From positions 380,324-412,323 of the forward strand of contig DIHO01000019.1 of the NCBI GenBank assembly GCA_002420185.1: DNA of 32,000 nucleotides, read 5' to 3'. Below are positions 2,838 to 24,160 of this stretch, in pieces. Both the position numbers and the translations under genes were made by a program. The stretch comes from Opitutales bacterium UBA5694. GTDB lineage: Bacteria; Verrucomicrobiota; Verrucomicrobiia; Opitutales; Opitutaceae. Numbering within the stretch: position 1 is the stretch's first letter; the number at the start of each line of letters is the position of its first letter. The notes beneath the pieces are model-generated. The model had not been told where the DNA came from, did no database searches, and saw nothing but the letters and a program-made list of their open reading frames with translations.

Positions 2838-4430
2838 TCATTCCATCACATCCTCAAACCAGTTTTCCAACTGGGATTTCAGTTCGCTGACCAATTCCGG
2901 ATACTGGTCTGCCAGATTATTCGTCTCACTTGGATCCTCCTCAATATTATAGAGCTCCGGTGCTCGTGCATCGGATAAGGTCCGCTCCACAGGAGGATTG
3001 GATATTTCCATCTCAAAATGCGGGCGATCGAATAATTCTCGATACGGTGGACCATCACTCTTGAGTTTTATCATGGCCTCAGGAATCCTGGGGTAATACA
3101 GCTTCCATGGACCATTCCGGACGGCTGAATTACAGTGCACCTCTGGATCATAACGATTGAACTGCCAGAATAGTGATCGCACATGATCATCTTGACCGGT
3201 TCGGAAAGAGGAGAGCAGCGATCGGCCGTCCAGTGGCAAAGTGGAAGCGGATTTAATGCCGGCGGCATCTATCAAAGTCGGGCGCCAATCTATGAAATGA
3301 CCAACTGGGTTTAGGGTTTTCCCTCCTTTAAATCCTTTTGGCCAACGAACCAGGCAGGGCACCCGTATTCCCCCCTCCAACACATCCTGTTTCATCCCTC
3401 TTAACGAACCATTGTAGCGGTCCATGTTATACTTCCCCTCGTCGCTGGAGTAATTGCCCAGCAGTGGGCCGTTATCGCTGGTGAAAACCACAATTGTATT
3501 ATACGCCTGGCCCGTTTCCTTGAGAGAATCAAGTACCTTTCCGATCCCAGTATCCATGCTTTCGATCATTGCGTAGAGGGTCGCCACACCCTTGTTGAGC
3601 TTCCCCATCTGCATGTATTTTTCCACCAGTTCCTGCGGTGCTTCCAACGGTGAATGGGGTGAGTTGTAGGACAGGTACAGCAAGAACGGATCCTGCCGTT
3701 TCACGCTAATAAAGCCTACCGCTTCATCCGTAAACATATCCGTCAGGTAGCGCTTATCACTTCTTTCCGAATAACCGTCCCGGTCGAGGATCCAGTTATA
3801 GTAATACATTCCTCCATTGAGAAACCCGAGGAAGTGGTCAAAGCCTCGAGCTATGGGATGGTATCGCATGTCATACAAACCGTTGTGCCATTTCCCGATC
3901 ATTGCCGTGACATATCCGGCTTGATTAAAGTCATCCGCGATCGTGGTCTCCTCTAAGGCGATTCTGTCCAGTCCACGATTGGATTCCACGGAAATGGCAC
4001 CTGTCCGGTGATTATAGCGGCCTGTCAACAGGCCAGCACGTGCAGGTGCACAGAGTGGTGAGGCGGAGTAATGTTGGTTCAGGATAAGGCCTTCTGCCGC
4101 TAGTCTATCCAGATTCGGCGTATTCAGAATAGTATTCCCGTAGCACCCCAAATCCCCGTACCCAAGATCATCTGCAAGGATGAATACGACGTTGGGTTTG
4201 CTGATAACGATATGCGAAAGGTCAGCTTCAGCTTTAAAGCGGATGAATTGGGTTGAATAAACAGCGTGAATAATCGGGCACAGGACTAGAAAGAGGAGAG
4301 AGAAGATGGCGTGTTTGATGGGGTGCATCTGTGGGGTAGTAGTTGAAGAATTTAGCCATCGATGGATGGTGGTGGGCTTTCGCAGATCAAATCTTCTCTG
4401 TGCATCAACTTTAGTGGTCCCAAACCTCAT
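2838..4430 (-). CDS. Arylsulfatase (type I, formylglycine-dependent)
   Basis: Motifs ILADDLGYGDLG, SPLCAPARAGLLTGR (C-x-P-x-R) and GKWHNG. The true start is probably the internal Met at 4328 (MHPIKHAIFSLLFLVLCPIIHA, a signal peptide) rather than 4430. Confidence 0.9.
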   Translation of the reverse strand: MRFGTTKVDAQRRFDLRKPTTIHRWLNSSTTTPQMHPIKHAIFSLLFLVLCPIIHAVYSTQFIRFKAEADLSHIVISKPNVVFILADDLGYGDLGCYGNTILNTPNLDRLAAEGLILNQHYSASPLCAPARAGLLTGRYNHRTGAISVESNRGLDRIALEETTIADDFNQAGYVTAMIGKWHNGLYDMRYHPIARGFDHFLGFLNGGMYYYNWILDRDGYSERSDKRYLTDMFTDEAVGFISVKRQDPFLLYLSYNSPHSPLEAPQELVEKYMQMGKLNKGVATLYAMIESMDTGIGKVLDSLKETGQAYNTIVVFTSDNGPLLGNYSSDEGKYNMDRYNGSLRGMKQDVLEGGIRVPCLVRWPKGFKGGKTLNPVGHFIDWRPTLIDAAGIKSASTLPLDGRSLLSSFRTGQDDHVRSLFWQFNRYDPEVHCNSAVRNGPWKLYYPRIPEAMIKLKSDGPPYRELFDRPHFEMEISNPPVERTLSDARAPELYNIEEDPSETNNLADQYPELVSELKSQLENWFEDVME

Positions 4431-4672
4431 TTACTCGTTACTGCTTTTGACGATCTACAGAAATATGCATAACTAGCTTCGATAGGTAGCCAAACACCTG
4501 CTTTGTTTACAATAAATCTGACTTGGTTAAATTGACAAGCAAATCATTTGTAATAAAGAAACGATTCACAGCCTAGGTAGGGTTGTGGTGTGAAAGGCGG
4601 CTAAAATCGAAACTAGTTACGGCACCCCGGAACTTTCCCCTACACAAATACATCAACTGAAATTTTAATTTA

Positions 4673-5545
4673 ATGAAAAGAACAGCACTTGTCACAGGAT
4701 CCAATCGAGGAATCGGCCTAGCTACTGTCATAAAGCTCGCTTGCCACGGGCTTAAGGTATATGCAGGAATGCGAGATCCGGAGACCAAATCAAAAAACCT
4801 TCTTCGTTCTATCTCAGGCGATGACTTAGACGTGGATGTTGTAGAACTCGATGTTAATCATGAAGCATCCGTCAAACGGTGTTTTGCTTCAATTGAGTCC
4901 TCAGGGGAAAAAGTAGACATCTTAATTAATAATGCTGGAATCGAGAGACGAGGATCGGTTGAAAAATGTCCTATCTCAACTTTCGAGGAAGTAATGAATA
5001 CGAATTATCTGGGACCCATTCGTTGCATTCAGGCAGCTTTACCGAATATGAAAAAAAGTGGTACAGGATTGATAGTAAATATCACTTCTGTAGCGGGCAA
5101 GGTGGCCGCTTCACCGCTTGCACCTTACACAGCATCTAAATTTGCTTTGGAGGCACTCTCAGACTGCCTCGCCCAGGAGGTACTGCCGCATGGCGTCAAA
5201 GTGGCGATAATCGAGCCCGGGATAATCGCGACAGACATGGCTGCTGACATAACCAAGGCAGAATACGATCCTGACTACCCACAGCAAAATAGGATGGCGG
5301 CCATGTTCGTAGAATCTCTCAAAAGCCCAGCATCGACTCAAATTGTAGCTGACGCTATAGTGGAGATCGTGGCTGGTAAAAGGGAAGGTTTACGGCATCC
5401 AGTTGGGCCAGATGCTATCCCGTTTCTTGAATGGAGAGAAAGCAAGTCAGACTCCGAGTGGGCGAATTGGCATAACGTCACTGACGAAGAGTGGTGCGAG
5501 TCGCTGGCAAAAGACTTTGGAATGAGCGTCAAATTAAGTGGCTAG
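4673..5545 (+). CDS. Short-chain dehydrogenase/reductase (SDR) family oxidoreductase
   Basis: N-terminal TGSNRGIGLA (TGxxxGxG dinucleotide-binding motif), NNAG motif, and the catalytic S...YxxxK (YTASK). It ends 40 nt upstream of the TIR gene on the same strand. Confidence 0.85.
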   Translation: MKRTALVTGSNRGIGLATVIKLACHGLKVYAGMRDPETKSKNLLRSISGDDLDVDVVELDVNHEASVKRCFASIESSGEKVDILINNAGIERRGSVEKCPISTFEEVMNTNYLGPIRCIQAALPNMKKSGTGLIVNITSVAGKVAASPLAPYTASKFALEALSDCLAQEVLPHGVKVAIIEPGIIATDMAADITKAEYDPDYPQQNRMAAMFVESLKSPASTQIVADAIVEIVAGKREGLRHPVGPDAIPFLEWRESKSDSEWANWHNVTDEEWCESLAKDFGMSVKLSG

Positions 5546-5585
5546 AATTTTTTATATGAACCCCAAAATGAAACTTTAGATCATC

Positions 5586-7088
5586 ATGAATGACATTTTT
5601 ATTAGTTACGCACACATTGACGACGAGTCCCTTGATGAGCAACAAAAGGGTTGGATCTCAAAATTTCATAGATCGCTTTCAGTCAAGATAGCCCAATTAA
5701 CAGGAGAACCTCCAAAGATTTGGAGAGATCCAAAGTTGCGAGGGAATGATGTGTTTGATCAGGCGATAGTGAATGAATTTAAGAATTCACGCCTGATGAT
5801 TTCGATACTTACTCCGAGATATGTGAAATCTGAATGGTGCCGGAAGGAAATAACTAATTTCTGTCGCAATGCTGAAGATCAAGGAGGACTCAATGTTGAA
5901 GGTAAATCGAGACTTATTAAAGTTATAAAAACCCCTATTGCTGCCCATTCGAGTGACACCCAGCTACCTGGCATTCTAGGGAGTATTTTGGGTTTTGAAT
6001 TCTTCGAGCTTGATCAAGAAACGGGCCGTGTAGTTGAGTTTGATGAGGCCTTTGGACAAAAGGCGAAACAAAGTTATTATTCTCGTATTTACGATTTAGC
6101 TACGGAGGTAGCCGATGTGCTTGTTGCGTTGGATAACGAGAAAGATGGGGATCAGGAATCCGTGATTCCTGCTCCAGATGAGGATAGCCAAATTGTTTTT
6201 TTGTCTTCGGTCACCTCAGACCTCGAGGAATCTCGTCGCAAAATTTCTCGTGAGCTCGTCGCCCGTGGTCATCAGGTAATAGGTTTAGATCCTTTGATTG
6301 CAGCCTCGGAAAATGCTTTGTCTGAAGCCACTGCAAAAATAAGCGAGGCGGATTGCGTGGTACACCTAGTAGGAGAGAAGTACGGCATCGTCCCTGAAGA
6401 TGCACAATGCTCCATACCTGAAATGCAATTGAATGCATCTGCCGAGCGTGCCTCAATCGATCCAAGCTTTAGGAGATTCGTTTGGATGCCAAGATCAGTG
6501 AATCCAACCGATCCCAGGCAAGTTACCTTTCTTCATGGTTTAATGGAGGACCCAAACCGTCAAAAGGGCGCAGAGATGCTTGAGGATACTTTGGATAATT
6601 TTAGAGACTACATTGTAGAAAAACTGCGTGTCCCGATACCCATTAGCACCCCGGCTGAAACGTCAATGCCGGATAGTGACGGAACAAAATCCGTTTACTT
6701 AATATACGACCTTCCAGACGAAGAGAACGTTGCGCCCTTGGAGGACTTCTTGTTTGATAATGGCTTGGAGGTTTTGACGCCAAATTTCGATGGTGATGAG
6801 TCAGAGATAAAGGAATCAAATATCGAAAAGCTCAAATCTTGCGATTCCGTCATGATATATTACGGCCAATGCGCTAAGACATGGGTCGATATGAAGCTCA
6901 TGAGCGTAATGAAAGCTCCCGGATATGGCAGGAAGAAGCCTTTTTCAAGCAAGCTCGTCTTCCTGGCACCGCCTTTTGATAGAAGGAAAATGCGATTCAG
7001 GAGCAACTTGGCTTCGGTAATAACTCAAGCGGACGAAGAATTTTCAGCGAAGGACCTAGAAATCGCTTTAGAAGAGCTAACGAAATAA
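5586..7088 (+). CDS. Triple-module TIR-like protein: N-terminal TIR domain, DUF4062-like module, and a third TIR/DUF4062-like alpha/beta module
   Basis: Module 1 (aa 1-~185) has DIFISYAHID...ISILTPRYVKSEWCRKEI, the classic bacterial TIR signature including the SxWCxxE glutamate (E88, nt 5847-5849). Module 2 (aa ~202-345) has IVFLSSVTSDLEESRRKISRELVARGHQV...ADCVVHLVGEKYG, which matches the DUF4062 pattern. Module 3 (aa ~368-500) has SVYLIYDLPDEE...CDSVMIYYG. Confidence 0.8.
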   Translation: MNDIFISYAHIDDESLDEQQKGWISKFHRSLSVKIAQLTGEPPKIWRDPKLRGNDVFDQAIVNEFKNSRLMISILTPRYVKSEWCRKEITNFCRNAEDQGGLNVEGKSRLIKVIKTPIAAHSSDTQLPGILGSILGFEFFELDQETGRVVEFDEAFGQKAKQSYYSRIYDLATEVADVLVALDNEKDGDQESVIPAPDEDSQIVFLSSVTSDLEESRRKISRELVARGHQVIGLDPLIAASENALSEATAKISEADCVVHLVGEKYGIVPEDAQCSIPEMQLNASAERASIDPSFRRFVWMPRSVNPTDPRQVTFLHGLMEDPNRQKGAEMLEDTLDNFRDYIVEKLRVPIPISTPAETSMPDSDGTKSVYLIYDLPDEENVAPLEDFLFDNGLEVLTPNFDGDESEIKESNIEKLKSCDSVMIYYGQCAKTWVDMKLMSVMKAPGYGRKKPFSSKLVFLAPPFDRRKMRFRSNLASVITQADEEFSAKDLEIALEELTK

Positions 7089-7100
7089 CCCTTCACGATC

Positions 7101-10100
7101 ATGAATAAAGAAGATTCTCAAAACCCTTTCCCTGGTTTGCGCCCTTTTTATTTTGATGATAGCTATCTCTTTTTTGGAAGGGATGCTCAGATAACGGAAC
7201 TTGCTAGTCGATTGCGTAAAAACAAATTCCTGGCTGTTGTTGGAACTTCAGGAAGCGGAAAGTCTTCACTCGTCCGGGCAGGCCTTCTGCCAGAGCTGTT
7301 GAGCGGCACCATGGTTAGTGCGGGTTCGCTTTGGGAAACAGCGATTATGAGACCAGGTGGTGACCCCATAACCAATTTGGCAGAGTCAATCGTACAGGCG
7401 GATCTATATGATCCCGAAGAGGAGGAGATCGTCTCTCAAGTGCGAGCAACCCTTACCAGGAGTGGTCTTGGACTGATAGAAGCCATCAGACAGTGCGACA
7501 TAGAGGAGGGCTCAAATCTTCTTATCGTCGTCGATCAATTTGAGGAGATTTTTCGGTTTAGGGGTAGCGATGACGCTAGTGACGAACAGGCGGCTTTTTT
7601 CGTAAATCTTCTGCTCGAGGCAACAGAACAAAGTGAGCTCCCAATCTATGTCATTATAACGATGCGATCAGATTTCTTGGGGGATTGTAGCCGATTTCCG
7701 AGACTGGCTAATTCTGTCAACGAGGGCGAATTTCTAATACCACGTTTAAATCGGGATCAGAGAAAAGAAGCGATAGAGGGTCCTATAAGAGTAGCAGGAG
7801 GAGAAGTATCCCAGCCTCTCCTGAACCGACTTCTCAATGATATTGGAGACGATCCAGATCAATTGCCCATATTGCAGCATGCCCTTATGCGAACTTGGGG
7901 ATATTGGGCAAAACATAGTGATCGTGATTCTATTGACTTGGATGATTACAGGGCGACCGGCGGCATGACAGAAGCTCTGTCACGTCACGCAAATGAGGTC
8001 TACGCTGCTCTACCAAGCGATGGTCACAGAAAAATAGCGGAAAAGGTTTTTAAGAATCTAACGGAAAAGATTGATCAAGGACGGGGAATTCGAAGGCCTA
8101 TGCCTTTTGGAGAGCTCCTTGAAATTGTCCAATGTGCTGAGGAGGATCTACGTTTAGTCGTAAACGAGTTTCGTGCCGCAGGTAGAACTTTTTTAATGCC
8201 AGCCCCGACGAGGAAAATTGATTTGTCTACCGTAATAGACATTTCGCACGAAAGCCTCATGCGAGTGTGGACTCGTCTCAAGGACTGGGTAGACGATGAA
8301 TCACAGTCGGCAAGGATTTACAGGCGTTTGGCTGACACAGCACAACTTTTTGAAGAAGGAAAAGCGGGCTATTATCGAGATCCGGATCTTCAGATCGCTA
8401 TGTCTTGGAAAGAAGAGGCACAACCGAATCACCTGTGGGCAGATAGGTACTATGAGGGATTCGACAGAGCAATGCAGTTCCTCGACAAAAGCTATGAGGT
8501 CACTAGGCAGGAAGAGATTGATAAAGAGAACGCAAGAATTCGCGAATTAGAATCTGCTAAGGCATTGGCGGCAGAGCAGGAAAAGAGAGCAGCCATTGAA
8601 AAAAGAAGTGCAAAAAGACTCAGAGTTTTGTCAGCTGGACTGGCATTGGCGGGCATTGCCTCTCTCGTTTTCTTAGCGTTTGCAATCAATTCAAAAAACG
8701 AAGTTAGCAATAAGATAAATGAGTTAGCGTCACGAAGTTTTCTTAGGGGACAAGAACTTGAAAAAAGCAAAGACGGTCTCAAGGCCTTGCCTTGGTACCT
8801 CGATGCAGTTGATCTGTCTAAAGGTAATGAATCGCTCAATGCAAAATATTTAAATGCTCTTTCAAATAAGCTTTCTAGTAATTTTATCCTAGAAAAAGGA
8901 ATAAATGTAAAAGACGTCTCGGAGTTGATCATCTCTGAAGACGGAAAGCTACTCGTGATAAATACAAACGCTGGTTTGTTTGGCGCGGAAAACAAGGTCC
9001 ACGTTTACTCATGGCCAGATCTGAGAGAAGTCTGCGAGTTGAAAATCGATGGAGTGATTTTTAAAACCAAGATTTCCCCAGATGGAGGTCATATATTCTC
9101 ATGCTCAAATATTGAATCAAAAGTTTGGAGTGTTTCGGCTGATTCTAAGACTGTTTTTCAAAAACCCTATTTTGGCAGCTTTTCATTCAATCCAAAAAAT
9201 GAAGGTGGATATCATTTGTTTGGATCCTCAGAAGGATTATCTAGAATTGAGAGGGACTTTAGCCAAGAGTCAGTCGTCCATAGCAGGAGAGTTGCTTCAA
9301 CGGCTATATCACCAAACGGGAATCATTATATTTCAATTGAAGAACTAGACCGCGAAACCACTGGTAGCGTGCCAAGTGCAGTCTTCAGAAGGCGATTATT
9401 TAGGTCAGGAGGAGTGCCCTCAAAAATAGTCAGTTTCAGTATTAAAAATGATTCCTTCGAACAAGATTTTGAGAGCGAGTTTGAAGGTTTCATCAGTCAA
9501 ATTATTTTTCCTGATGACTCGCCTGAAGGAATAGCGTTTTTCTCGGCTAGCCAATCTTCTAAACGCTTCACGCAGGTGAACTTCTCAATAGGCGAAGTTT
9601 CTAACGCGGCTCTACTAGATTTCGGTGGTGTGGATCCAGGAGAGCTTCAGATAAAATCAGGAGGTGATAAAGTTCTAGTCGCATCGAGTGTTGGCTCATT
9701 GCAAATACTCGAGAAGCAGCCAACTGGTTGGGAATTAGTTCAAAATTTTCCCCTCAGCGAGAATAGCCCCTCCGATATTAGTAGTAATGGATTGGACGTC
9801 CTGACGTCCAACTCAAATGGATCAATACAATTGTTGTCGGCAATTTCTGGAGATCAATTTGCCGACTCCTTGTATGGGAAAGTGGCGATTAAGGACGCGA
9901 TCTTCGGGCCATCTGATGATAAGGTCATTGTAGCACTTGAGAATGGTGAAGTTAAAGTTTTTTCTATACCCATCGGTAAAGTACGAGTTACTGGAACACC
10001 GTACCAATCTTCCGTCAGCGGTGGGAGGGGTCCTTGGCTAGCCGTCGATGGAATTGTACAATCGACTCGTTCTCCACGAACTCGATCTTCAGATGACTTT

Positions 10101-11975
10101 GAACCGACCTCCATGTCGACGGAGCTCGGAGACGCAAATCCGATGTGGCGTCTAAATTTTGACAGGGTAAGCAAGGTAACTGATGCGAAGATTTGGAATC
10201 GTCCCTCCGCGGGCGTAACCCCAAATCCAAATGATATGTTCATACGACGGCTTAAAAATTTTAAAGTGTCTTTAAAGTTGGATGGCGAGACCGTTTGGGA
10301 AAAATTGTTTCTCCACAAGAAAAGTGATAGTCCCCCATATCCTTACCATGAGGTGGAGTTTGATGACGGAGTGATGGCCGACTGTTTCGAAATAACCATA
10401 ACCGATGTAAACGAAAACAATGAAAAGATCCTCTCTCTTTCTGAGGTCGAAGTTTTTGCTATTTCTGAAAATAAAAATGTCAAATTCGGTGAAGATCTAT
10501 CTCAATATGTAAGGGAAGTCTCTAGTCATGAGTTACTTGCAGACGGAAGAGTCGTTTTATCGAGTTCTAGCATAGAAGCGAAATCATTCGCAAGTTACAC
10601 TAGCAAAGGGGGCGAAGAAGAAAGAATTCTTTCGAAATTTTTAAAAGCTTACGATTCACAAAACTGGACCCTTTGTGTACGGTATTTTTCACAACTTGGC
10701 CTAAATCGGGAAAATTCTGAAGTGGTCCGTAAAGCTATTATCTGCTATAGGAGCTTAGGTTCGTTCGAGGATTCCCAAAAGCTCCTAGCTAATTACTTAA
10801 GTAGTAGTTCACCAGATTATAAATTCATCGTGAATGAATTGTGTAACTTAGATCAATTTGGTTTGGACGTTGGGAGCCTTGTTACAAAGGTGTTATCTAC
10901 GGAGTCGTTTTACCAAGATAAATTAGCGTGCAAAAGCATGAGCCTATTTTTGGTTTCTAGCGACAAATACCAGCTAAGCCAGAGATTACACGATTGGTTG
11001 GAGGATGAATACAACAGAAGAGATTCATACGCTACATTGAGGCCTTCCGAGAATTATGATCTGGAAAACGGAATTACAATTGAAGGCTGGTTTAGATATG
11101 ATGCGCGTGGTTTTTACAGTTGGGCCCCTCGACTTATCAACAAATTCGGCCAAGGAGGCTCCGATGGGTACTGCCTGACTGTTGCTGGCTCCGGAAAAGT
11201 GCTTTTTGAGCTCAATAACAGCAGCACGGGTGAAGCAGCCTACCATTCTGTCGATTCACCCGAATCTGGACAGTGGTTTCATTTAGCAGCAACTTGGGAT
11301 ATACAAACTAAACAAATGCGTATGTACATCGACGGTGTCGAGAAAGGTGATCCATTAGAGTTTCAAGGTCCGATTGGCCTTACAAGCGTACCTCTCGGTT
11401 TCGCAACAAACAATCTAAGAGCGACCCGCATAGATGCCTCATATTCCGAAATAAGGATCTGGAATTACGCAAGAAGTAGTGAACAAATTAGAGAAAATAA
11501 AAACAAGCGGTTAGATGCTGAGCTAGACGGACTTGCTTTTTACGGATCTTTTTCTGATGAAAACGAGATCAGAAAGTTGCCGTGGAGTAAAATTGTGAAT
11601 CCATCAATTCAATCCACCAAGCAGCTCCCTTTCGGAAGTGAAACAGATTATCTCGCTCTTACCGAATCCAATAGTTTTACGGAGAACTTATGGTTGGATT
11701 TGATTCTCGCAGAAAGCTACTTTCAGCGAGATGAAATGAGCGAAGCATTAAACATTCTGACAGCTTCAGATTTTAGATTTAGCAGCCGAGTTTACAATCC
11801 AGCTAGATTAGGGTTAATATCTAAATATCTTACTTTCATAGACGACGGAAATGAGGTATTCCGGGAAAGGATGAGCAGCTTGTTGCAGCAGGGCATAACT
11901 GAAATGAACAAACCCTCCGAAGGGATGCTCCCGTCTTGGGTACCACAAGTGAGAAAGTTAATACAGCCTTTTTAA
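7101..11975 (+). CDS. Transmembrane STAND NTPase (nSTAND-type P-loop) with a beta-propeller-like, discoidin-like, helical-repeat and LamG C-terminal region
   Basis: The N-terminus is NPFPGLRPFYFDDSYLFFGRD...FLAVVGTSGSGKSSLVRAGLLPEL (Walker A). It also has LLIVVDQFEEIF (Walker B), ITMRSDF, LPILQHALMRTW and ISHESLMRVW, the signature of the nSTAND/WD40-associated NTPase family. A coiled coil spans aa ~465-508. A TM helix VLSAGLALAGIASLVFLAFAI (aa 509-529) is preceded by KRSAKRLR. Degenerate WD40-like repeats cover aa ~600-960. A discoidin/F5-8-C-like region covers aa ~975-1122 (MWRLNF...KVSLKLDGETVWE...LSLSEVEVFA). A LamG domain covers aa ~1315-1465 (ITIEGWFRY...GQWFHLAATWD...MRMYIDGVE...IRIWNYARS). 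Confidence 0.85.
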   Translation: MNKEDSQNPFPGLRPFYFDDSYLFFGRDAQITELASRLRKNKFLAVVGTSGSGKSSLVRAGLLPELLSGTMVSAGSLWETAIMRPGGDPITNLAESIVQADLYDPEEEEIVSQVRATLTRSGLGLIEAIRQCDIEEGSNLLIVVDQFEEIFRFRGSDDASDEQAAFFVNLLLEATEQSELPIYVIITMRSDFLGDCSRFPRLANSVNEGEFLIPRLNRDQRKEAIEGPIRVAGGEVSQPLLNRLLNDIGDDPDQLPILQHALMRTWGYWAKHSDRDSIDLDDYRATGGMTEALSRHANEVYAALPSDGHRKIAEKVFKNLTEKIDQGRGIRRPMPFGELLEIVQCAEEDLRLVVNEFRAAGRTFLMPAPTRKIDLSTVIDISHESLMRVWTRLKDWVDDESQSARIYRRLADTAQLFEEGKAGYYRDPDLQIAMSWKEEAQPNHLWADRYYEGFDRAMQFLDKSYEVTRQEEIDKENARIRELESAKALAAEQEKRAAIEKRSAKRLRVLSAGLALAGIASLVFLAFAINSKNEVSNKINELASRSFLRGQELEKSKDGLKALPWYLDAVDLSKGNESLNAKYLNALSNKLSSNFILEKGINVKDVSELIISEDGKLLVINTNAGLFGAENKVHVYSWPDLREVCELKIDGVIFKTKISPDGGHIFSCSNIESKVWSVSADSKTVFQKPYFGSFSFNPKNEGGYHLFGSSEGLSRIERDFSQESVVHSRRVASTAISPNGNHYISIEELDRETTGSVPSAVFRRRLFRSGGVPSKIVSFSIKNDSFEQDFESEFEGFISQIIFPDDSPEGIAFFSASQSSKRFTQVNFSIGEVSNAALLDFGGVDPGELQIKSGGDKVLVASSVGSLQILEKQPTGWELVQNFPLSENSPSDISSNGLDVLTSNSNGSIQLLSAISGDQFADSLYGKVAIKDAIFGPSDDKVIVALENGEVKVFSIPIGKVRVTGTPYQSSVSGGRGPWLAVDGIVQSTRSPRTRSSDDFEPTSMSTELGDANPMWRLNFDRVSKVTDAKIWNRPSAGVTPNPNDMFIRRLKNFKVSLKLDGETVWEKLFLHKKSDSPPYPYHEVEFDDGVMADCFEITITDVNENNEKILSLSEVEVFAISENKNVKFGEDLSQYVREVSSHELLADGRVVLSSSSIEAKSFASYTSKGGEEERILSKFLKAYDSQNWTLCVRYFSQLGLNRENSEVVRKAIICYRSLGSFEDSQKLLANYLSSSSPDYKFIVNELCNLDQFGLDVGSLVTKVLSTESFYQDKLACKSMSLFLVSSDKYQLSQRLHDWLEDEYNRRDSYATLRPSENYDLENGITIEGWFRYDARGFYSWAPRLINKFGQGGSDGYCLTVAGSGKVLFELNNSSTGEAAYHSVDSPESGQWFHLAATWDIQTKQMRMYIDGVEKGDPLEFQGPIGLTSVPLGFATNNLRATRIDASYSEIRIWNYARSSEQIRENKNKRLDAELDGLAFYGSFSDENEIRKLPWSKIVNPSIQSTKQLPFGSETDYLALTESNSFTENLWLDLILAESYFQRDEMSEALNILTASDFRFSSRVYNPARLGLISKYLTFIDDGNEVFRERMSSLLQQGITEMNKPSEGMLPSWVPQVRKLIQPF
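7242..7265 (+). other. Walker A / P-loop (GTSGSGKS) of the STAND NTPase
   Basis: aa 48-55 of the 7101..11975 ORF. Walker B hhhhDQFEE is at aa 140-149 (nt 7518-7547). Confidence 0.85.
8625..8687 (+). other. Single predicted transmembrane helix inside the STAND protein
   Basis: 21 uninterrupted hydrophobic/small residues (VLSAGLALAGIASLVFLAFAI) with a basic cluster (KRSAKRLR) on the N-terminal side. By the positive-inside rule the NTPase sits in the cytoplasm and the ~1090-aa C-terminal region sits outside. Confidence 0.6.
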
Positions 11976-12005
11976 TCATTTTTTTGGAATAAAATGAAAA
12001 TCACG

Positions 12006-12020
12006 GGCCTATCTTAGGCC
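12006..12020 (+). other. Intercistronic stem-loop (GGCCTA-tct-TAGGCC)
   Basis: Perfect 6-bp inverted repeat with a 3-nt loop, between the STAND stop (11975) and the next start (12028). No U-tract follows, so it is not a canonical terminator. Confidence 0.35.
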
Positions 12021-12027
12021 AGTAAAT

Positions 12028-13716
12028 ATGGGTTCATCTCCAGTTAGATTTGCGATAGTTTCTTTAGGTTTATTGGCCCTTTACCTTGGTTGGATCGGTG
12101 CTAACAGCTTATCGGCAGATGATTCCTTCTTAGATTCTTTGTATAAAGCAGTGAAGTTATTCGTGCTTGAGGATTCAGGTATGTTTCGACTCGAGCATCC
12201 CGTAACCCTCGAAATTGCCCGTTGGTTGGCCCCTATGACAACGATTTCTAGCATTTTTGCCGCTGCTAGCACTTATCTTAGGCAGTTATCGGATTTCATC
12301 AGGCTCGTGTTCTGTAGTGATCATACTATAGTCCTTGGAGCTAGTGCCGAGGCCTTGCACCTAATTGCAGACTTAAGTGCATCCAAGACTGGGAAAATCG
12401 TTGTGATTGAAAAAAACGCGAACGCTCCGAACCTGCAGGAATTAAAAAAGTATCGGTCTCTCGTAATCATAGGAGATTTCGAATCTAGGGCTAACTTAGA
12501 AAAAGCAAGAGTATATAAAGCAAAATCTGTAATTAGCCTCACTAGCAAAAACGAAAAAAATCTTTCTGTTATACTGCGGGCAAGTCAGCTGATTCCTGAT
12601 CAAAGGTTCGATAATCCGGTAAAGTTTTATCTGCCAATAAAAGGCTTTTTTCACACAGAATCTCTACAGAGCAGTGGAATTTGTGATTATCCAAGTGCAA
12701 GGAAGAAAAAAATCATAGTAGTCAACCTAGTTAGAAATCGTGCTCGATGTTTATTCTCAAAACATCCAATCGAGCTTGATCGATTAGGAAAAGTAAAGGA
12801 GCCAATTGTCATTTTTGATACCTACAATGATCTCGTTCAGGCTTTTATAGTACATACTGCTGAGGTTGGTCATTACCCTAATAACGTTAAGGCAACTATT
12901 TATATCGTAAGTCCTGACGCCGAAATAAAAGTTGAGAAATTAGCCTATCATTTTCCAGCCGTGAGAGATTGTGTTAATCTTCAAAGCGTGTCGCTCAAAA
13001 GCGGTGACGATGCGGTAGACACTATCGCGGAACTAATCGAGAGCAAGCAGGGCAATTACAATAAATCAGTATTCTTAATGGAATCTTCGCCTCCGTCAGA
13101 AATGATCGAGGCAATAAGAATCAAGGAGAAAATCACGATCGATGCCTCAGTCACATTTGTGATACCTGAGTTAGATAATGGATTACTACCAAAGGGCATC
13201 GATTGTATAAAGAGTGTTGAGACTTTAAAGGATAGCTTGAGCGGTGCAGCAGTCTTTATGGCTTCTTTAGAAGATTCGGCGAAAAAACTGCACGAGGCAT
13301 GGTATAATCAAAATGACATGCTAATTAAGGCCGCAGAGACCGAGGGTATGGTTGATAAGGCTTCAGCACTGAAAAGCAAACCAGCGTTTCTGCCCTGGGA
13401 GGACCTTAGTGATGAACAGAGGAAGCCAAGCATTTCTCTAGCTGATCATGCAGAGATAAAGAGGCGATTCATTATGTCCGCAATGGGAAAGAAAGAAGGT
13501 AGCTCCATCGACGCTAAGTTGATAGATGAAAGCGTGATGGATGCACTTTGCCGGATGGAGCACAACAGATGGATGTCAACCTTAAGGATGATGGGATGGA
13601 ATTATGGCTCGAAACGGAATGACGATAAGAAAATACACAACAATTTGGTCCCATATGACGAGCTTGATGCCGATGCGAAATCCTTCGACAAGACTATGAT
13701 CGAAAATTTGCATTAG
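12028..13716 (+). CDS. Membrane protein with a 2-TM channel-like core, a TrkA-N (RCK-type Rossmann) domain and C-terminal RyR-domain repeats
   Basis: TM1 is FAIVSLGLLALYLGWIGA. A pore-helix-like segment DSLYKAVKLFVLEDSG follows, with no TVGYG filter. TM2 is LEIARWLAPMTTISSIFAAA. The Rossmann region is HTIVLGASAEALHLIADL...KIVVIEKN...LVIIGDFES...AKSVISLT. Two C-terminal RyR-like repeats are present (KKLHEAWYNQ...PWEDLSDEQRKPSISLADH and CRMEHNRWMSTLRMMGWNYG...HNNLVPYDELDADAKSFDK). Confidence 0.75.
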   Translation: MGSSPVRFAIVSLGLLALYLGWIGANSLSADDSFLDSLYKAVKLFVLEDSGMFRLEHPVTLEIARWLAPMTTISSIFAAASTYLRQLSDFIRLVFCSDHTIVLGASAEALHLIADLSASKTGKIVVIEKNANAPNLQELKKYRSLVIIGDFESRANLEKARVYKAKSVISLTSKNEKNLSVILRASQLIPDQRFDNPVKFYLPIKGFFHTESLQSSGICDYPSARKKKIIVVNLVRNRARCLFSKHPIELDRLGKVKEPIVIFDTYNDLVQAFIVHTAEVGHYPNNVKATIYIVSPDAEIKVEKLAYHFPAVRDCVNLQSVSLKSGDDAVDTIAELIESKQGNYNKSVFLMESSPPSEMIEAIRIKEKITIDASVTFVIPELDNGLLPKGIDCIKSVETLKDSLSGAAVFMASLEDSAKKLHEAWYNQNDMLIKAAETEGMVDKASALKSKPAFLPWEDLSDEQRKPSISLADHAEIKRRFIMSAMGKKEGSSIDAKLIDESVMDALCRMEHNRWMSTLRMMGWNYGSKRNDDKKIHNNLVPYDELDADAKSFDKTMIENLH

Positions 13717-23377: not shown

Positions 23378-24160
23378 GTGAAGATCACATTTCTAGGAAC
23401 TGGTACATCTCAGGGGGTACCCGTAATCGGATGCAGTTGTCCGACTTGCGTTTCGACCGATCCGCGCAACACGCGCTACCGGACGCATGCCCACGTGGAG
23501 ATTGGAAATTTGAATATCCAAGTAGATGCCGCTCCTGAATTCCGGATACAGGCCCTCAAACACTCAATACCGAAAATTGATATGGTCCTGCTGACCCATG
23601 GGCATGCCGACCACATTCTAGGGATGGACGACTTAAGACGCTATTGCGATATGCGTGATGGGGAAGCTCTTCCGGTCTACACTAACGAAGAGGGGAAAGA
23701 GCGGATGCGAAGTATATATGGATACGCTATACGGGGAAAACCCAAGGAGTACGGCTATCCTGCATTTTCCCTTTTTCGGATGCCTTCGAGGCTAGATCTG
23801 CCGGCTGGAGTGATTCATTCGTTTAATCAGAGGCATGGAAACTTTGAATCGCTTGGGTTTGTATTCATAGAACGATTCACAAGCAAGAAGCTCGCCTATT
23901 TTACCGATTGCGATTCTGTGAAGCAAAAAGCTATCGAGCGGGCGAAGGGTGCTGACTTGGCTGTGCTTGATGGGCTGCGCTTTAAGGCCCACAAATCGCA
24001 CATGAGTGTCGAGCAAGCGATCGAGGTAGCTGATAAAATAGGGGCTAAAAAGACCTACTTAATCCACATGACGCATCACGTGAATCACGCTATTGCTGAG
24101 ACGAAATTGCCGGGAAAAGTTCGATTCGCTTACGACAATTTGGTGGTTGACCTTTGTTAG
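23378..24160 (+). CDS. MBL-fold metallo-hydrolase, PhnP-like
   Basis: GTGTSQGVPVIGCSCPTC (Cys cluster as in PhnP-type phosphodiesterases) and LLTHGHADH (HxHxDH) motifs. GTG start. Confidence 0.8.
   Translation: MKITFLGTGTSQGVPVIGCSCPTCVSTDPRNTRYRTHAHVEIGNLNIQVDAAPEFRIQALKHSIPKIDMVLLTHGHADHILGMDDLRRYCDMRDGEALPVYTNEEGKERMRSIYGYAIRGKPKEYGYPAFSLFRMPSRLDLPAGVIHSFNQRHGNFESLGFVFIERFTSKKLAYFTDCDSVKQKAIERAKGADLAVLDGLRFKAHKSHMSVEQAIEVADKIGAKKTYLIHMTHHVNHAIAETKLPGKVRFAYDNLVVDLC

Follow-up and report, generated by a model that had tools for sequence, protein, structure and literature searches.

A gene cassette encoding a TIR/DUF4062 protein, a membrane-anchored nSTAND1 NTPase and a RyR-domain channel-like protein in an Opitutales bacterium: a candidate STAND-controlled TIR signalling system

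Why would a bacterium encode, side by side on one strand, a TIR protein, a very large STAND NTPase and a channel-like membrane protein that ends in ryanodine receptor (RyR) repeats? Such a cassette lies within a 32,000-nucleotide stretch of DNA from Opitutales bacterium UBA5694 (contig DIHO01000019.1, positions 380,324 to 412,323; this whole stretch is called the window below), where a reading made from the sequence alone had proposed an undescribed conflict or defence system. We favour, with somewhat better than even confidence, the view that the cassette is a STAND-controlled TIR signalling system, acting in conflict or defence, that has a RyR-domain ion channel as its effector. The conflict-system character of the locus is supported by its hypervariable sensor, by pseudogenised relatives, by the varied genomic positions of these relatives, and by neighbours that include integrase and toxin-antitoxin genes. 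The parts of the cassette, their occurrence elsewhere, and the explanations that compete with this view are described below.

The three open reading frames (ORFs) follow one another with gaps of 12 nucleotides between genes 1 and 2 and 52 nucleotides between genes 2 and 3, at exactly the coordinates given by the sequence-only reading (Table 1). Their lengths and Pfam scores are far beyond chance. A terminator scan found no plus-strand terminator-like site in either junction, in agreement with the earlier statement that no terminator separates the genes, and the 52-nucleotide spacer contains a T-run that is not preceded by a hairpin. The same spacer carries a perfect 6-bp inverted repeat (GGCCTATCTTAGGCC, positions 12006-12020) with no plus-strand T-run 3' of it; this hairpin scored as terminator-like on the minus strand only. 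The lower GC content ascribed to the block is real but modest, with values of 0.40-0.46 over positions 8000-13500 of the cassette compared to 0.46-0.51 in the flanks. The identical locus is present in several marine metagenome assemblies, on contigs of up to 279 kb.

Gene 1 encodes a protein with three modules, for which we found 1,527 homologues of approximately 500 amino acids that are 42-55% identical to it and mostly annotated as Verrucomicrobiota. The first module is a TIR domain according to Pfam and also gives a match to the TIR-like NCBIfam model FxsC_Nterm (E 6.5e-14, below cutoff). Its motif, S82-x-W84-C85-x-x-E88 (SEWCRKE), has S82, W84, C85 and E88 invariant in 68 homologues, and in the same alignment G263, G267, P270 and E271 of the DUF4062 module are invariant. 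An AlphaFold2 (AF2) model of the protein (pLDDT 85.6) consists of three separate alpha/beta modules with disordered linkers between them. The TIR domains of AbTir, SARM1, MyD88, TLR1 and RPP1 are among its Foldseek matches, as are nucleoside 2-deoxyribosyltransferase and DNPH1, although these last are matches of the whole chain and are not assignable to one module. The third module has no significant Pfam match and may mediate docking to the STAND protein. Profile-profile comparison among the three modules was not significant (module C against module B is weak, E 0.0056). Given these comparisons, and because the whole-chain Foldseek matches are not module-specific, we rejected three TIR domains as an established description. 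The triple-TIR protein of the sequence-only reading thus reduces to a TIR domain (module A), a DUF4062 domain (module B) and a third module of no significant family match.

The translation of gene 2 contains a Walker A motif (GTSGSGKS, with K54) and a Walker B motif (LLIVVDQFEE) within an nSTAND1 NTPase module. A transmembrane (TM) helix follows, and an equivalent helix is found after the NTPase in every TIR-partnered nSTAND1 protein that we checked, whatever its tail. The helix has a basic N-terminal flank (seven lysines and arginines, compared to three on the C-terminal side), which predicts a cytoplasmic NTPase and a 1,090-amino acid tail outside the cytoplasmic membrane. Within the tail, matches to Beta-prop_THOC3 (E 4.6e-4) and F5_F8_type_C_2 (E 0.008) fall below the Pfam cutoff. 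The P-loop STAND ATPase with a membrane helix and a lectin-like tail described earlier is therefore recovered in the nSTAND1 assignment, the motifs, the helix and the LamG domain. The predicted placement of the sensor tail outside the cytoplasm goes beyond that description.

Gene 3 encodes a protein whose AF2 model, built from an 82-sequence alignment, has a pLDDT of 91.3 and a pTM of 0.86. In this model RCK1 spans amino acids 100-245, the second RCK-like domain 258-410 and the RyR repeats 412-561. The best Foldseek matches in the PDB are to GsuK (E 3e-10), the TrkA gating ring, MthK and Slo1/BK; for RCK-gated K+ channels and the TrkA ring the values range from E 3e-10 to 1e-6. In the viral library, the protein matched a K+ channel encoded by a phage, and its RyR module matched models of many RyR-domain proteins from phages. 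Pfam, the model and the GsuK match agree with the earlier description of a two-TM channel-like core joined to TrkA-N and RyR domains, and the model confidently predicts a GsuK/MthK-like RCK channel scaffold that has no K+ filter. Conserved residues of the pore-like module are D36, Y39, Q43-L44-F45 and L61-E-x-A-R-[FW]-L-A-P69. No K+ selectivity filter is present in the window protein, which reads LFVLEDSG at that place, and the T[VILT]G[YFL]G pattern occurs in only one of the 82 family members. We therefore rejected a canonical K+ channel as the identity of gene 3. The family is large: an exhaustive profile search, with clustering at 50% identity, gave 2,691 clusters at E<=1e-30, which with few exceptions are 570-620 amino acids long and match from end to end.

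Table 1. Coordinates of the cassette genes, their predicted domains and the adjacent upstream gene in the window
Feature	Position	Strand	Description and evidence
Gene 1	5586..7088	+	500 aa; TIR / DUF4062 / alpha-beta module; predicted signal-generating or NAD-cleaving enzyme
Module A, TIR domain	5586..6146	+	Pfam TIR_2 aa 4-96, E 2.6e-14; also Pfam TIR; catalytic-type E88
Module B, DUF4062	6174..6635	+	Pfam aa 204-280, E 5e-12; TIR/N-deoxyribosyltransferase-like alpha/beta fold
Module C, alpha/beta (flavodoxin-like), aa 365-500	6678..7085	+	AF2 beta-alpha-beta pattern, pLDDT >90
Gene 2	7101..11975	+	1624 aa; single-pass membrane nSTAND1 NTPase with long lectin-like tail; predicted sensor and switch
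nSTAND1 NTPase module	7125..8360	+	Pfam nSTAND1 (PF20703) aa 9-420, E 7e-98, 329 bits, model positions 1-374/379
Transmembrane helix, aa 509-527	8625..8681	+	VLSAGLALAGIASLVFLAF; Kyte-Doolittle score 2.32
Hypervariable predicted extracytoplasmic sensor region	8706..11972	+	Weak beta-propeller and F5/8 type C (discoidin-like) matches; helical in parts; LamG
Laminin_G_3	11022-11489	+	Pfam aa 1308-1463, E 1e-21
Gene 3	12028..13716	+	562 aa; 2TM pore-like, tandem RCK, RyR repeats; predicted ligand-gated membrane effector
Pore-like module, aa 1-94	12028..12309	+	TM1 4-28, short re-entrant helix 34-46, loop, TM2 59-94 (AF2)
RCK1 (TrkA_N Rossmann, aa 95-250) and second RCK-like alpha/beta domain (aa 251-411)	12310..13260	+	Pfam TrkA_N aa 101-192, E 5e-11; AF2
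Two RyR (R12-type) helical repeats, aa 412-562	13261..13713	+	Pfam RyR (PF02026) aa 501-559, E 2.7e-13
SDR-family oxidoreductase gene	4673-5545	+	Ends 40 nt upstream of gene 1

The RyR repeats are the part of gene 3 that connects it to TIR chemistry. Two 2026 preprints describe phage RyR (PF02026) domains, RyDEP and RyR Tad, that act on the products of TIR enzymes (PMC13232231; 10.64898/2026.06.04.730250). Both proteins bind 2'cADPR, 3'cADPR and cADPR by means of H/W/H/D residues. In RyDEP, H75 and D117 are catalytic, W78 contacts the adenine and H100 the phosphates, while most RyDEP homologues bind their ligand with nanomolar affinity and do not cleave it (PMC13232231). RyR Tad binds 3' cyclic ADP-ribose (3'cADPR; Kd 43 nM), 2'cADPR and cADPR via H129/W132, H154 and D171 (10.64898/2026.06.04.730250). 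The second repeat of the window protein has H512, W515, H537 and D554, with a spacing (0/+3/+25/+42) equal to that of H75/W78/H100/D117 in RyDEP and of H129/W132/H154/D171 in RyR Tad; the first repeat has H422, W425 and W457. The correspondence with RyDEP is drawn from this spacing, the RyR consensus, the published numbering and alignments to other RyR domains. RyDEP itself (phage DyoEdafos gp78) was not among the phage matches, and a search that used gp62 of Gordonia phage Hanem as a bridge gave 35tm_A. Matches of the repeat to PDB sequences comprise Repeat12 of RyR1, RyR2 and RyR3 as well as bacterial RyR domains, including 35tm_A. Within the channel family H512 is conserved in 81/82 members, W515 in 79/82 and D554 in 71/82, and position 537 is occupied by H, S, T or N. 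By analogy with the phage proteins, the RyR repeat of gene 3 is predicted to form a pocket for a ligand of ADP-ribose (ADPR) type.

RyR domains occur in several other proteins encoded near channel or TIR-nSTAND1 loci (comparison loci are given by number, with coordinates and strand within each). These include a RelA_SpoT-TPR-RyR protein (L014:14972-17518(-)), a RelA_SpoT-TPR-SLOG(LSDAT)-RyR protein (L041:3921-6443(-)), a NUDIX-RelA_SpoT-SLOG-RyR protein (L043:6044-9133(-)), and an RyR-TPR-S-guanylate cyclase protein (L066:19905-21470(+)). AAA-RyR proteins are encoded at L021:1199-3904(-) and, with a weaker AAA_16 match, at L029:6627-9332(+). Stand-alone RyR proteins of approximately 167 amino acids are found at L032:6176-6676(+) and L043:9375-9881(+), and an additional RyR-domain protein at L027:86-2623(+). 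Together these look like a wider bacterial nucleotide-signalling network centred on RyR domains. SLOG and NUDIX domains are modules that bind or hydrolyse ADPR-type ligands, and their fusion to RyR domains supports a nucleotide-ligand role for the bacterial members of the family.

If the three genes act together, their association should be visible in other genomes, and we examined it from both ends of the cassette. In every context examined from the TIR end, an nSTAND1 gene directly follows the homologue of gene 1, with only a degraded remnant of it in L071. The NTPase and TM portions of these relatives are 54-66% identical to those of the window, whereas the tails differ: 3keto-disac_hyd and ankyrin domains in L062, WD40 in L064-L067, and F5/8C and LamG in L068-L070. 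No channel gene or channel remnant was found in L062, L064 or L068-L070. What is conserved is thus the pair of TIR protein and TM-nSTAND1 protein, to which the lineage of the window adds the channel as a third, accessory gene; because the pair often occurs without it, the channel is best described as an accessory effector.

These relatives also show how unsettled the locus is. The nSTAND1 gene is broken, and the TIR gene intact, at three loci: in L068 (11494-16312) it is interrupted by an opposite-strand ORF, in L069 (11507-16332) it is split into three ORFs, and in L071 (11400-12888) only frameshifted remnants are left. L065 adjoins a phage-type integrase and L066 adjoins toxin-antitoxin genes. 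The flanking genes, including the catabolic neighbours, differ from locus to locus. The cassette thus behaves as part of the accessory genome. A conserved core-genome locus, which the sequence-only reading had named as an outcome that would refute it, was rejected, given the different flanks, variable content and pseudogenes of the relatives.

From the channel end we assembled 44 non-redundant loci, of which 41 come from species-representative genomes and three are distant homologues from metagenomes. The 41 lie in at least nine phyla, and the lineages covered include Verrucomicrobiota, Desulfobacterota, Calditrichota, Chlorobiota, Ignavibacteriota, Chloroflexota, Bacteroidota, Actinomycetota, and Gammaproteobacteria. 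A pooled Pfam scan of approximately 110 neighbours within two genes of the channel found TIR_2 in 11, DUF4062 in at least four and AAA_16 in 11, and TPR and WD40 repeats were abundant. Per-locus counts were made with hidden Markov models (HMMs) seeded from Pfam-confirmed TIR/DUF4062 domains and with follow-up Pfam scans; single-sequence phmmer searches and iterative HMMs from the TIR modules or the nSTAND of the window alone recovered almost no neighbours. In this way a TIR/DUF4062 gene was found near the channel at 22 of the 44 loci, and at 17 of the 24 that have at least 5 kb of flanking sequence on both sides. These counts are lower bounds, because the DUF4062 proteins of L012 and L013 escaped the HMMs. 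ORF calling was rough in loci of high GC content. TIR genes are rare in genomes, and we infer that their enrichment, with DUF4062, beside the channel is very large.

The arrangement of the genes is often tight. A channel gene lies between two TIR genes with 4-nucleotide overlaps in L036, and it is followed by a DUF4062-WD40 gene after 2 nucleotides in L029, by a DUF4062-NACHT-TPR gene after 18 nucleotides in L015 and L017, by a TIR gene after 38 nucleotides in L011 and by a TIR-NACHT-TPR gene after 63 nucleotides in L018. DUF4062-TPR genes precede the channel by 3 and 10 nucleotides in L012 and L013, respectively. In L014 the channel gene is followed by a TIR-NB-ARC gene, and in L027 a DUF4062-NACHT gene and then a WD40 gene precede it. 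Across these loci, the partners are TIR or DUF4062 domains fused to NB-ARC, NACHT, nSTAND1, or TPR/WD40 arrays with no detected NTPase. The channel family is thus independently and tightly linked to TIR/DUF4062 proteins, mostly of STAND type, in many phyla.

The nearest analogues of the window cassette are two gammaproteobacterial loci, L016 (11704-20973) and L025 (11721-20069; Halioglobus japonicus). Here a SIR2_2-TIR_2 fusion of approximately 500 amino acids is followed by a TM-nSTAND1 protein of approximately 1,550-1,590 amino acids, and a YpsA-type SLOG protein of approximately 640 amino acids is encoded between these two and the gene for the RyR channel, on which the set converges. Here different parts make up a trio or quartet that parallels the cassette. 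Concerning recurrence, which the sequence-only reading had expected of the three genes as a set, the exact three-gene set is not widespread, whereas the TIR/TM-nSTAND1 pair and the linkage of the channel to TIR/DUF4062 proteins do recur. One Verrucomicrobiaceae metagenome-assembled genome (L021) has two 2TM-TrkA_N-RyR genes within 6 kb (4219-6033 and 9941-11695), with a TIR protein encoded approximately 7.4 kb away in addition to its AAA-RyR protein. In Frankia, the channel gene comes after genes for a PP2C/SpoIIE-type phosphatase and for a large protein with no annotation (L042:8216-9823 and L045:8337-9902), and neither of these two loci, which were checked individually, has a TIR/DUF4062 gene. 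The pooled Pfam scan contains six such PP2C neighbours, with L035, L039, L047, and L048 as the other Frankia loci. This suggests that the Frankia clade of the channel receives a different upstream input.

Comparison of the window with a near-identical strain (L072), which keeps the SDR gene and all of the cassette genes, shows where the cassette changes fastest. Identity is 95.5% for the SDR protein, 96.4% for the TIR protein, 97-100% for residues 1-500 of the STAND protein, and 92% for the channel. In contrast, residues 600-1624 of the STAND protein (8706-11972, compared to L072:4236-7526) are only 46-69% identical. Non-synonymous codon differences exceed synonymous ones in this ectodomain, and the synonymous differences are raised too. 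The abrupt step in divergence within the STAND gene is consistent with allelic replacement or with diversifying selection acting on a surface used in recognition, and the raised synonymous differences suggest allelic replacement by recombination as much as positive selection in place. The ratio of non-synonymous to synonymous codon differences is 0.87 for the channel and 0.29 for the TIR protein. The re-entrant helix and loop of the channel are 100% identical in the two strains. Its most divergent part is the second RyR repeat (13498-13713, amino acids 491-562), at 79% identity compared to 94-100% elsewhere, and in this repeat the H/W/H/D residues are unchanged. Pressure from phage inhibitors as the cause of this divergence would be speculation.

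How might the parts work together? In the STAND-controlled TIR signalling that we favour, the hypervariable lectin-like outer tail of the TM-nSTAND1 protein would detect a cue, for which phages, foreign cells and surface glycans are candidates. The cytoplasmic NTPase would then switch or oligomerise in an NTP-dependent manner and so activate the separate TIR/DUF4062 protein, as is the case for STAND-TIR proteins generally. By analogy with the chemistry of bacterial TIR domains, the TIR domain (through E88) would cleave NAD+ to yield a signal of ADPR type, for instance 2'cADPR, 3'cADPR or cADPR. This signal may bind the RyR repeat of the channel at H512/W515/H537/D554, as in the phage RyR proteins. 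The RCK ring would move and a pore that is not K+-selective would open, resulting in ion flux, depolarisation, and growth arrest or death. In the channel-less relatives, NAD+ depletion is presumably the sole action of the TIR protein, unless its signal goes to an effector whose gene lies at another place. The logic of a signal passed to a membrane effector is now mechanistically plausible, because RyR domains bind cADPR isomers made by TIR enzymes (PMC13232231; 10.64898/2026.06.04.730250).

Several points weigh against this reading. Each step of the mechanism is drawn from sequence, models and analogy with the literature. The topology of the STAND protein is taken from the positive-inside rule, and it would be unusual for ectodomains with WD40 or ankyrin repeats, as found in some relatives, to lie outside the cytoplasm. 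The pore has no K+ filter, and ion conduction through it is a prediction. The enrichment of TIR/DUF4062 genes beside the channel is judged from the general rarity of TIR genes and from adjacency rather than from a matched background rate, and about half of the loci of the channel family have no TIR/DUF4062 neighbour; in the Frankia group the neighbour is PP2C, and elsewhere no recognisable one is present. The closest TIR-nSTAND1 relatives, even L068-L070 with the same tail, have no channel or remnant of one, so the pair can do without the channel. Finally, the H/D dyad that performs catalysis in RyDEP is intact in the RyR repeat, which could accordingly break down a signal rather than sense it.

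The last two of these points are the strength of the alternative that survives best, which we nevertheless consider unlikely. Here the TIR and TM-nSTAND1 proteins would form a complete two-gene abortive-infection module that depletes NAD+, and the RyR protein would be either a regulator, whose RyR repeat hydrolyses or sequesters stray cADPR-type signal as an off-switch or as a brake on autoimmunity, or a chance neighbour acquired in this lineage. The recurrence of the pair with no channel remnant would be expected, H512 and D554 would be kept as the glycosidase dyad of RyDEP, and the faster divergence of the channel than of the TIR protein between strains (0.87 compared to 0.29) would fit as well. 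However, a soluble enzyme would be enough for clearance, and the fusion of the RyR repeats to a conserved 2TM pore-like module and a tandem RCK ring points to an output at the membrane. Of the phage RyR homologues that carry these residues, most bind and do not cleave, and the operonic association of the channel with TIR/DUF4062 genes in many phyla is unlike that of a chance neighbour.

A second alternative keeps the channel as effector and moves the sensing site: the TrkA-N/RCK domain would read NAD+/NADH or an NAD-derived nucleotide, so that NAD+ depletion by the TIR protein gates the pore and the RyR repeats are an accessory. This has some appeal, since the matched entries of the structural neighbour GsuK were solved with NAD and with ADP bound to the RCK domain, and since GxGxxG (75-76 of 82 members) and the acidic residue of beta2 in the RCK1 Rossmann fold are kept in most of the family. 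In the window, however, the glycine loop reads G104-A-S-A-E-A, a degenerate state shared by only 4 of the 82, while the RyR tetrad is intact, and the direct experimental support for binding of TIR products lies with RyR domains. We regard this alternative as quite improbable. Of the two domains, TrkA-N and RyR, of the protein that the sequence-only reading named as reader of the signal, the second has its pocket residues intact and is likelier to be the signal reader in the window protein, because the glycine loop of the first is degenerate. We likewise give little credence to a non-immune housekeeping pathway in which the lectin-like ectodomain of a glycan degrader senses polysaccharide and adjusts ion flux or metabolism: the flanks are sulfatase-rich with one sialidase-like gene, LamG and discoidin-like domains often bind carbohydrate and the tail is predicted to be periplasmic, but the ectodomain is 46-69% identical between strains compared to 95.5% for the flanking SDR protein, the relatives lie at different positions with different tails, some fragmented and some beside integrase or toxin-antitoxin genes, the catabolic neighbours vary by locus, and TIR plus STAND is a hallmark of conflict systems (PMC7159879, PMC8195603).

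Is a STAND-controlled TIR system with a RyR-domain channel already known under another name? PADLOC gave no system-level match for the three cassette proteins or for the partner STAND and TIR proteins at other loci. Its best match was ThsB1 for the TIR protein (E 0.0024, 15 bits), and the channel matches no ThsA/ThsB model. A bacterial TrkA/RCK-RyR membrane protein goes unmentioned in the available portions of the RyR preprints, the Thoeris survey (10.64898/2025.12.03.692087), the Aravind-lab conflict papers and a 2026 STAND survey. The earlier statement that no named system has this composition therefore holds for PADLOC and the literature searched.

Thoeris systems (types I-XI; Ofir 2021; Yirmiya et al. 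2025) are anti-phage systems based on TIR signalling; TIR proteins in Avs/STAND contexts were discarded from the survey of these types (10.64898/2025.12.03.692087). The cADPR isomers of Thoeris signalling are also ligands of RyR domains (PMC13232231). As in Thoeris, a TIR protein that has a catalytic-type glutamate is encoded in the cassette beside a separate protein, here predicted to join the binding of a small molecule to a toxic or membrane output. However, Thoeris is a minimal operon of a TIR protein and an effector, with no STAND protein, in which the TIR protein itself senses infection. The window departs from this in that the 1624-amino acid nSTAND1 gene, the invariant partner of the TIR gene, stands between TIR and effector. 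In addition, the window TIR protein has three modules and 500 amino acids, and the RyR sensor with a 2TM/RCK output is not among the effector labels visible in the survey (10.64898/2025.12.03.692087). Type X Thoeris pairs a TIR protein with a channel-type effector, the "ion channel" ThsK. A metagenome scan recovered two such loci (L055:3358-4495 and L056:372-1509), in which the ThsK candidate is a 208-amino acid protein with an Ion_trans_2 domain (E 2.5e-5) and a TLTYGG filter, encoded 4 nucleotides upstream of the TIR gene. A search of plasmids with the Type X TIR protein found only Type II (TIR+Macro) loci. The Type X effector has no RCK or RyR domain and matches the window channel only at E 0.14 by BLASTP, while the window channel has no Ion_trans_2 match. 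The Type X TIR protein is a short, single-domain member of a Type II-like cluster, in contrast to the three-module protein of the window.

Avs and bNACHT systems share with the cassette a STAND switch with Walker A and B motifs, a variable sensor and a TIR effector. In Avs, however, effector, NTPase and sensor are on one polypeptide, whereas the TIR protein of the window is a separate ORF 12 nucleotides upstream; TIR-STAND fusions (TIR-NACHT or TIR-NB-ARC) are found only at other loci (L014, L018, and L034). The repeat sensor of Avs is cytoplasmic and recognises phage proteins, while in the window the sensor lies C-terminal to a TM helix and its predicted location is extracytoplasmic. The window STAND also differs from Avs and bNACHT in belonging to the nSTAND1 clade, in being membrane-anchored, and in having an extra channel gene. 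Neither Avs nor bNACHT models were among the PADLOC matches for the window or the partner STAND proteins. The nSTAND1 conflict systems of Kaur, Burroughs, Iyer and Aravind (PMC7159879, PMC8195603) are alike in clade, in their TIR-type effectors and in their variable C-terminal sensors. These papers do not mention TrkA, RyR or DUF4062 partners. Pfam identifies no effector-associated adaptor domain (EAD) in the cassette proteins, and the TIR protein is always adjacent. Compared to the systems of Kaur et al., the constant feature of the window nSTAND1 subgroup is its TM helix, to which the window adds a lectin-like tail. The cassette falls outside the full definitions of both Thoeris and the Avs/nSTAND1 systems.

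The channel-like protein is similarly composite. With GsuK, MthK, Kch and the TrkA ring it shares a 2TM pore with a re-entrant pore helix and then tandem RCK domains, in the same fold and order, but it lacks the T-[VI]-G-[YF]-G filter and the GxGxxG of RCK1 and has a C-terminal pair of RyR repeats. With RyDEP and RyR Tad it shares PF02026, the H/W/H/D pocket residues with their spacing, and structural similarity to phage RyR proteins. However, the phage proteins are small soluble dimers that act in counter-defence, whereas the window protein is a chromosomally encoded membrane protein with tandem repeats that is found beside TIR genes. In animal ryanodine receptors, the RyR domain is part of a very different Ca2+ channel with six TM segments.

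Genes for a sulfatase, an SDR-family protein and a beta-lactamase-family protein flank the cassette. The SDR gene and the TIR gene may be co-transcribed, and a promoter-like site (5333-5361) lies within the 3' part of the SDR gene. This gene accompanies the cassette only in L072 and is missing beside the cassette relatives in other genomes, and for this reason we do not count it as a functional part and rejected it as a fourth member of the cassette. Approximately 10 kb downstream, from about position 23378 of the window onward (L001:21351-21689), is a gene of metallo-beta-lactamase (MBL) fold with a Lactamase_B_2 match and a weak precomputed Pfam match to Anti-Pycsar_Apyc1. Apyc1 degrades cyclic-nucleotide immune signals; the gene near 23378 is probably an ordinary MBL hydrolase.

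We tentatively extend these observations to the family as a whole, a proposal that we consider plausible but somewhat less likely than not. In this proposal, bacterial 2TM-RCK-RyR proteins would be channels gated through their RyR domains by cADPR isomers made by TIR enzymes. A TIR-cADPR-RyR axis would then exist in prokaryotes, predating or paralleling the modulation of animal ryanodine receptors, and the RyR "sponges" of phages would be captured host sensors. In the cassette, the membrane STAND protein that drives the axis would survey the outside of the cell with its hypervariable lectin-like ectodomain, unlike the cytoplasmic Avs proteins.

If the cassette is a STAND-controlled TIR system with a RyR-domain effector, RCK-type channels with RyR domains would be a new class of effector in TIR-based bacterial immunity, and a single operon would join STAND/NLR-like sensing with small-molecule signalling of the Thoeris kind. 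The bacterial RyR family, with approximately 2,700 channel-type clusters in addition to SLOG, NUDIX and RelA_SpoT fusions, would gain a cellular role, and phage RyR-domain sponges and glycosidases a reason to exist. The action of cADPR on animal ryanodine receptors has been debated for decades. Whether a domain of RyR Repeat12 type can link the binding of a cADPR-type ligand to the gating of a channel would become directly testable in a simple system. The predicted position of the sensor would also suggest that bacterial NLR-like receptors can sense extracytoplasmic cues, beyond the view of STAND immunity as cytoplasmic only.

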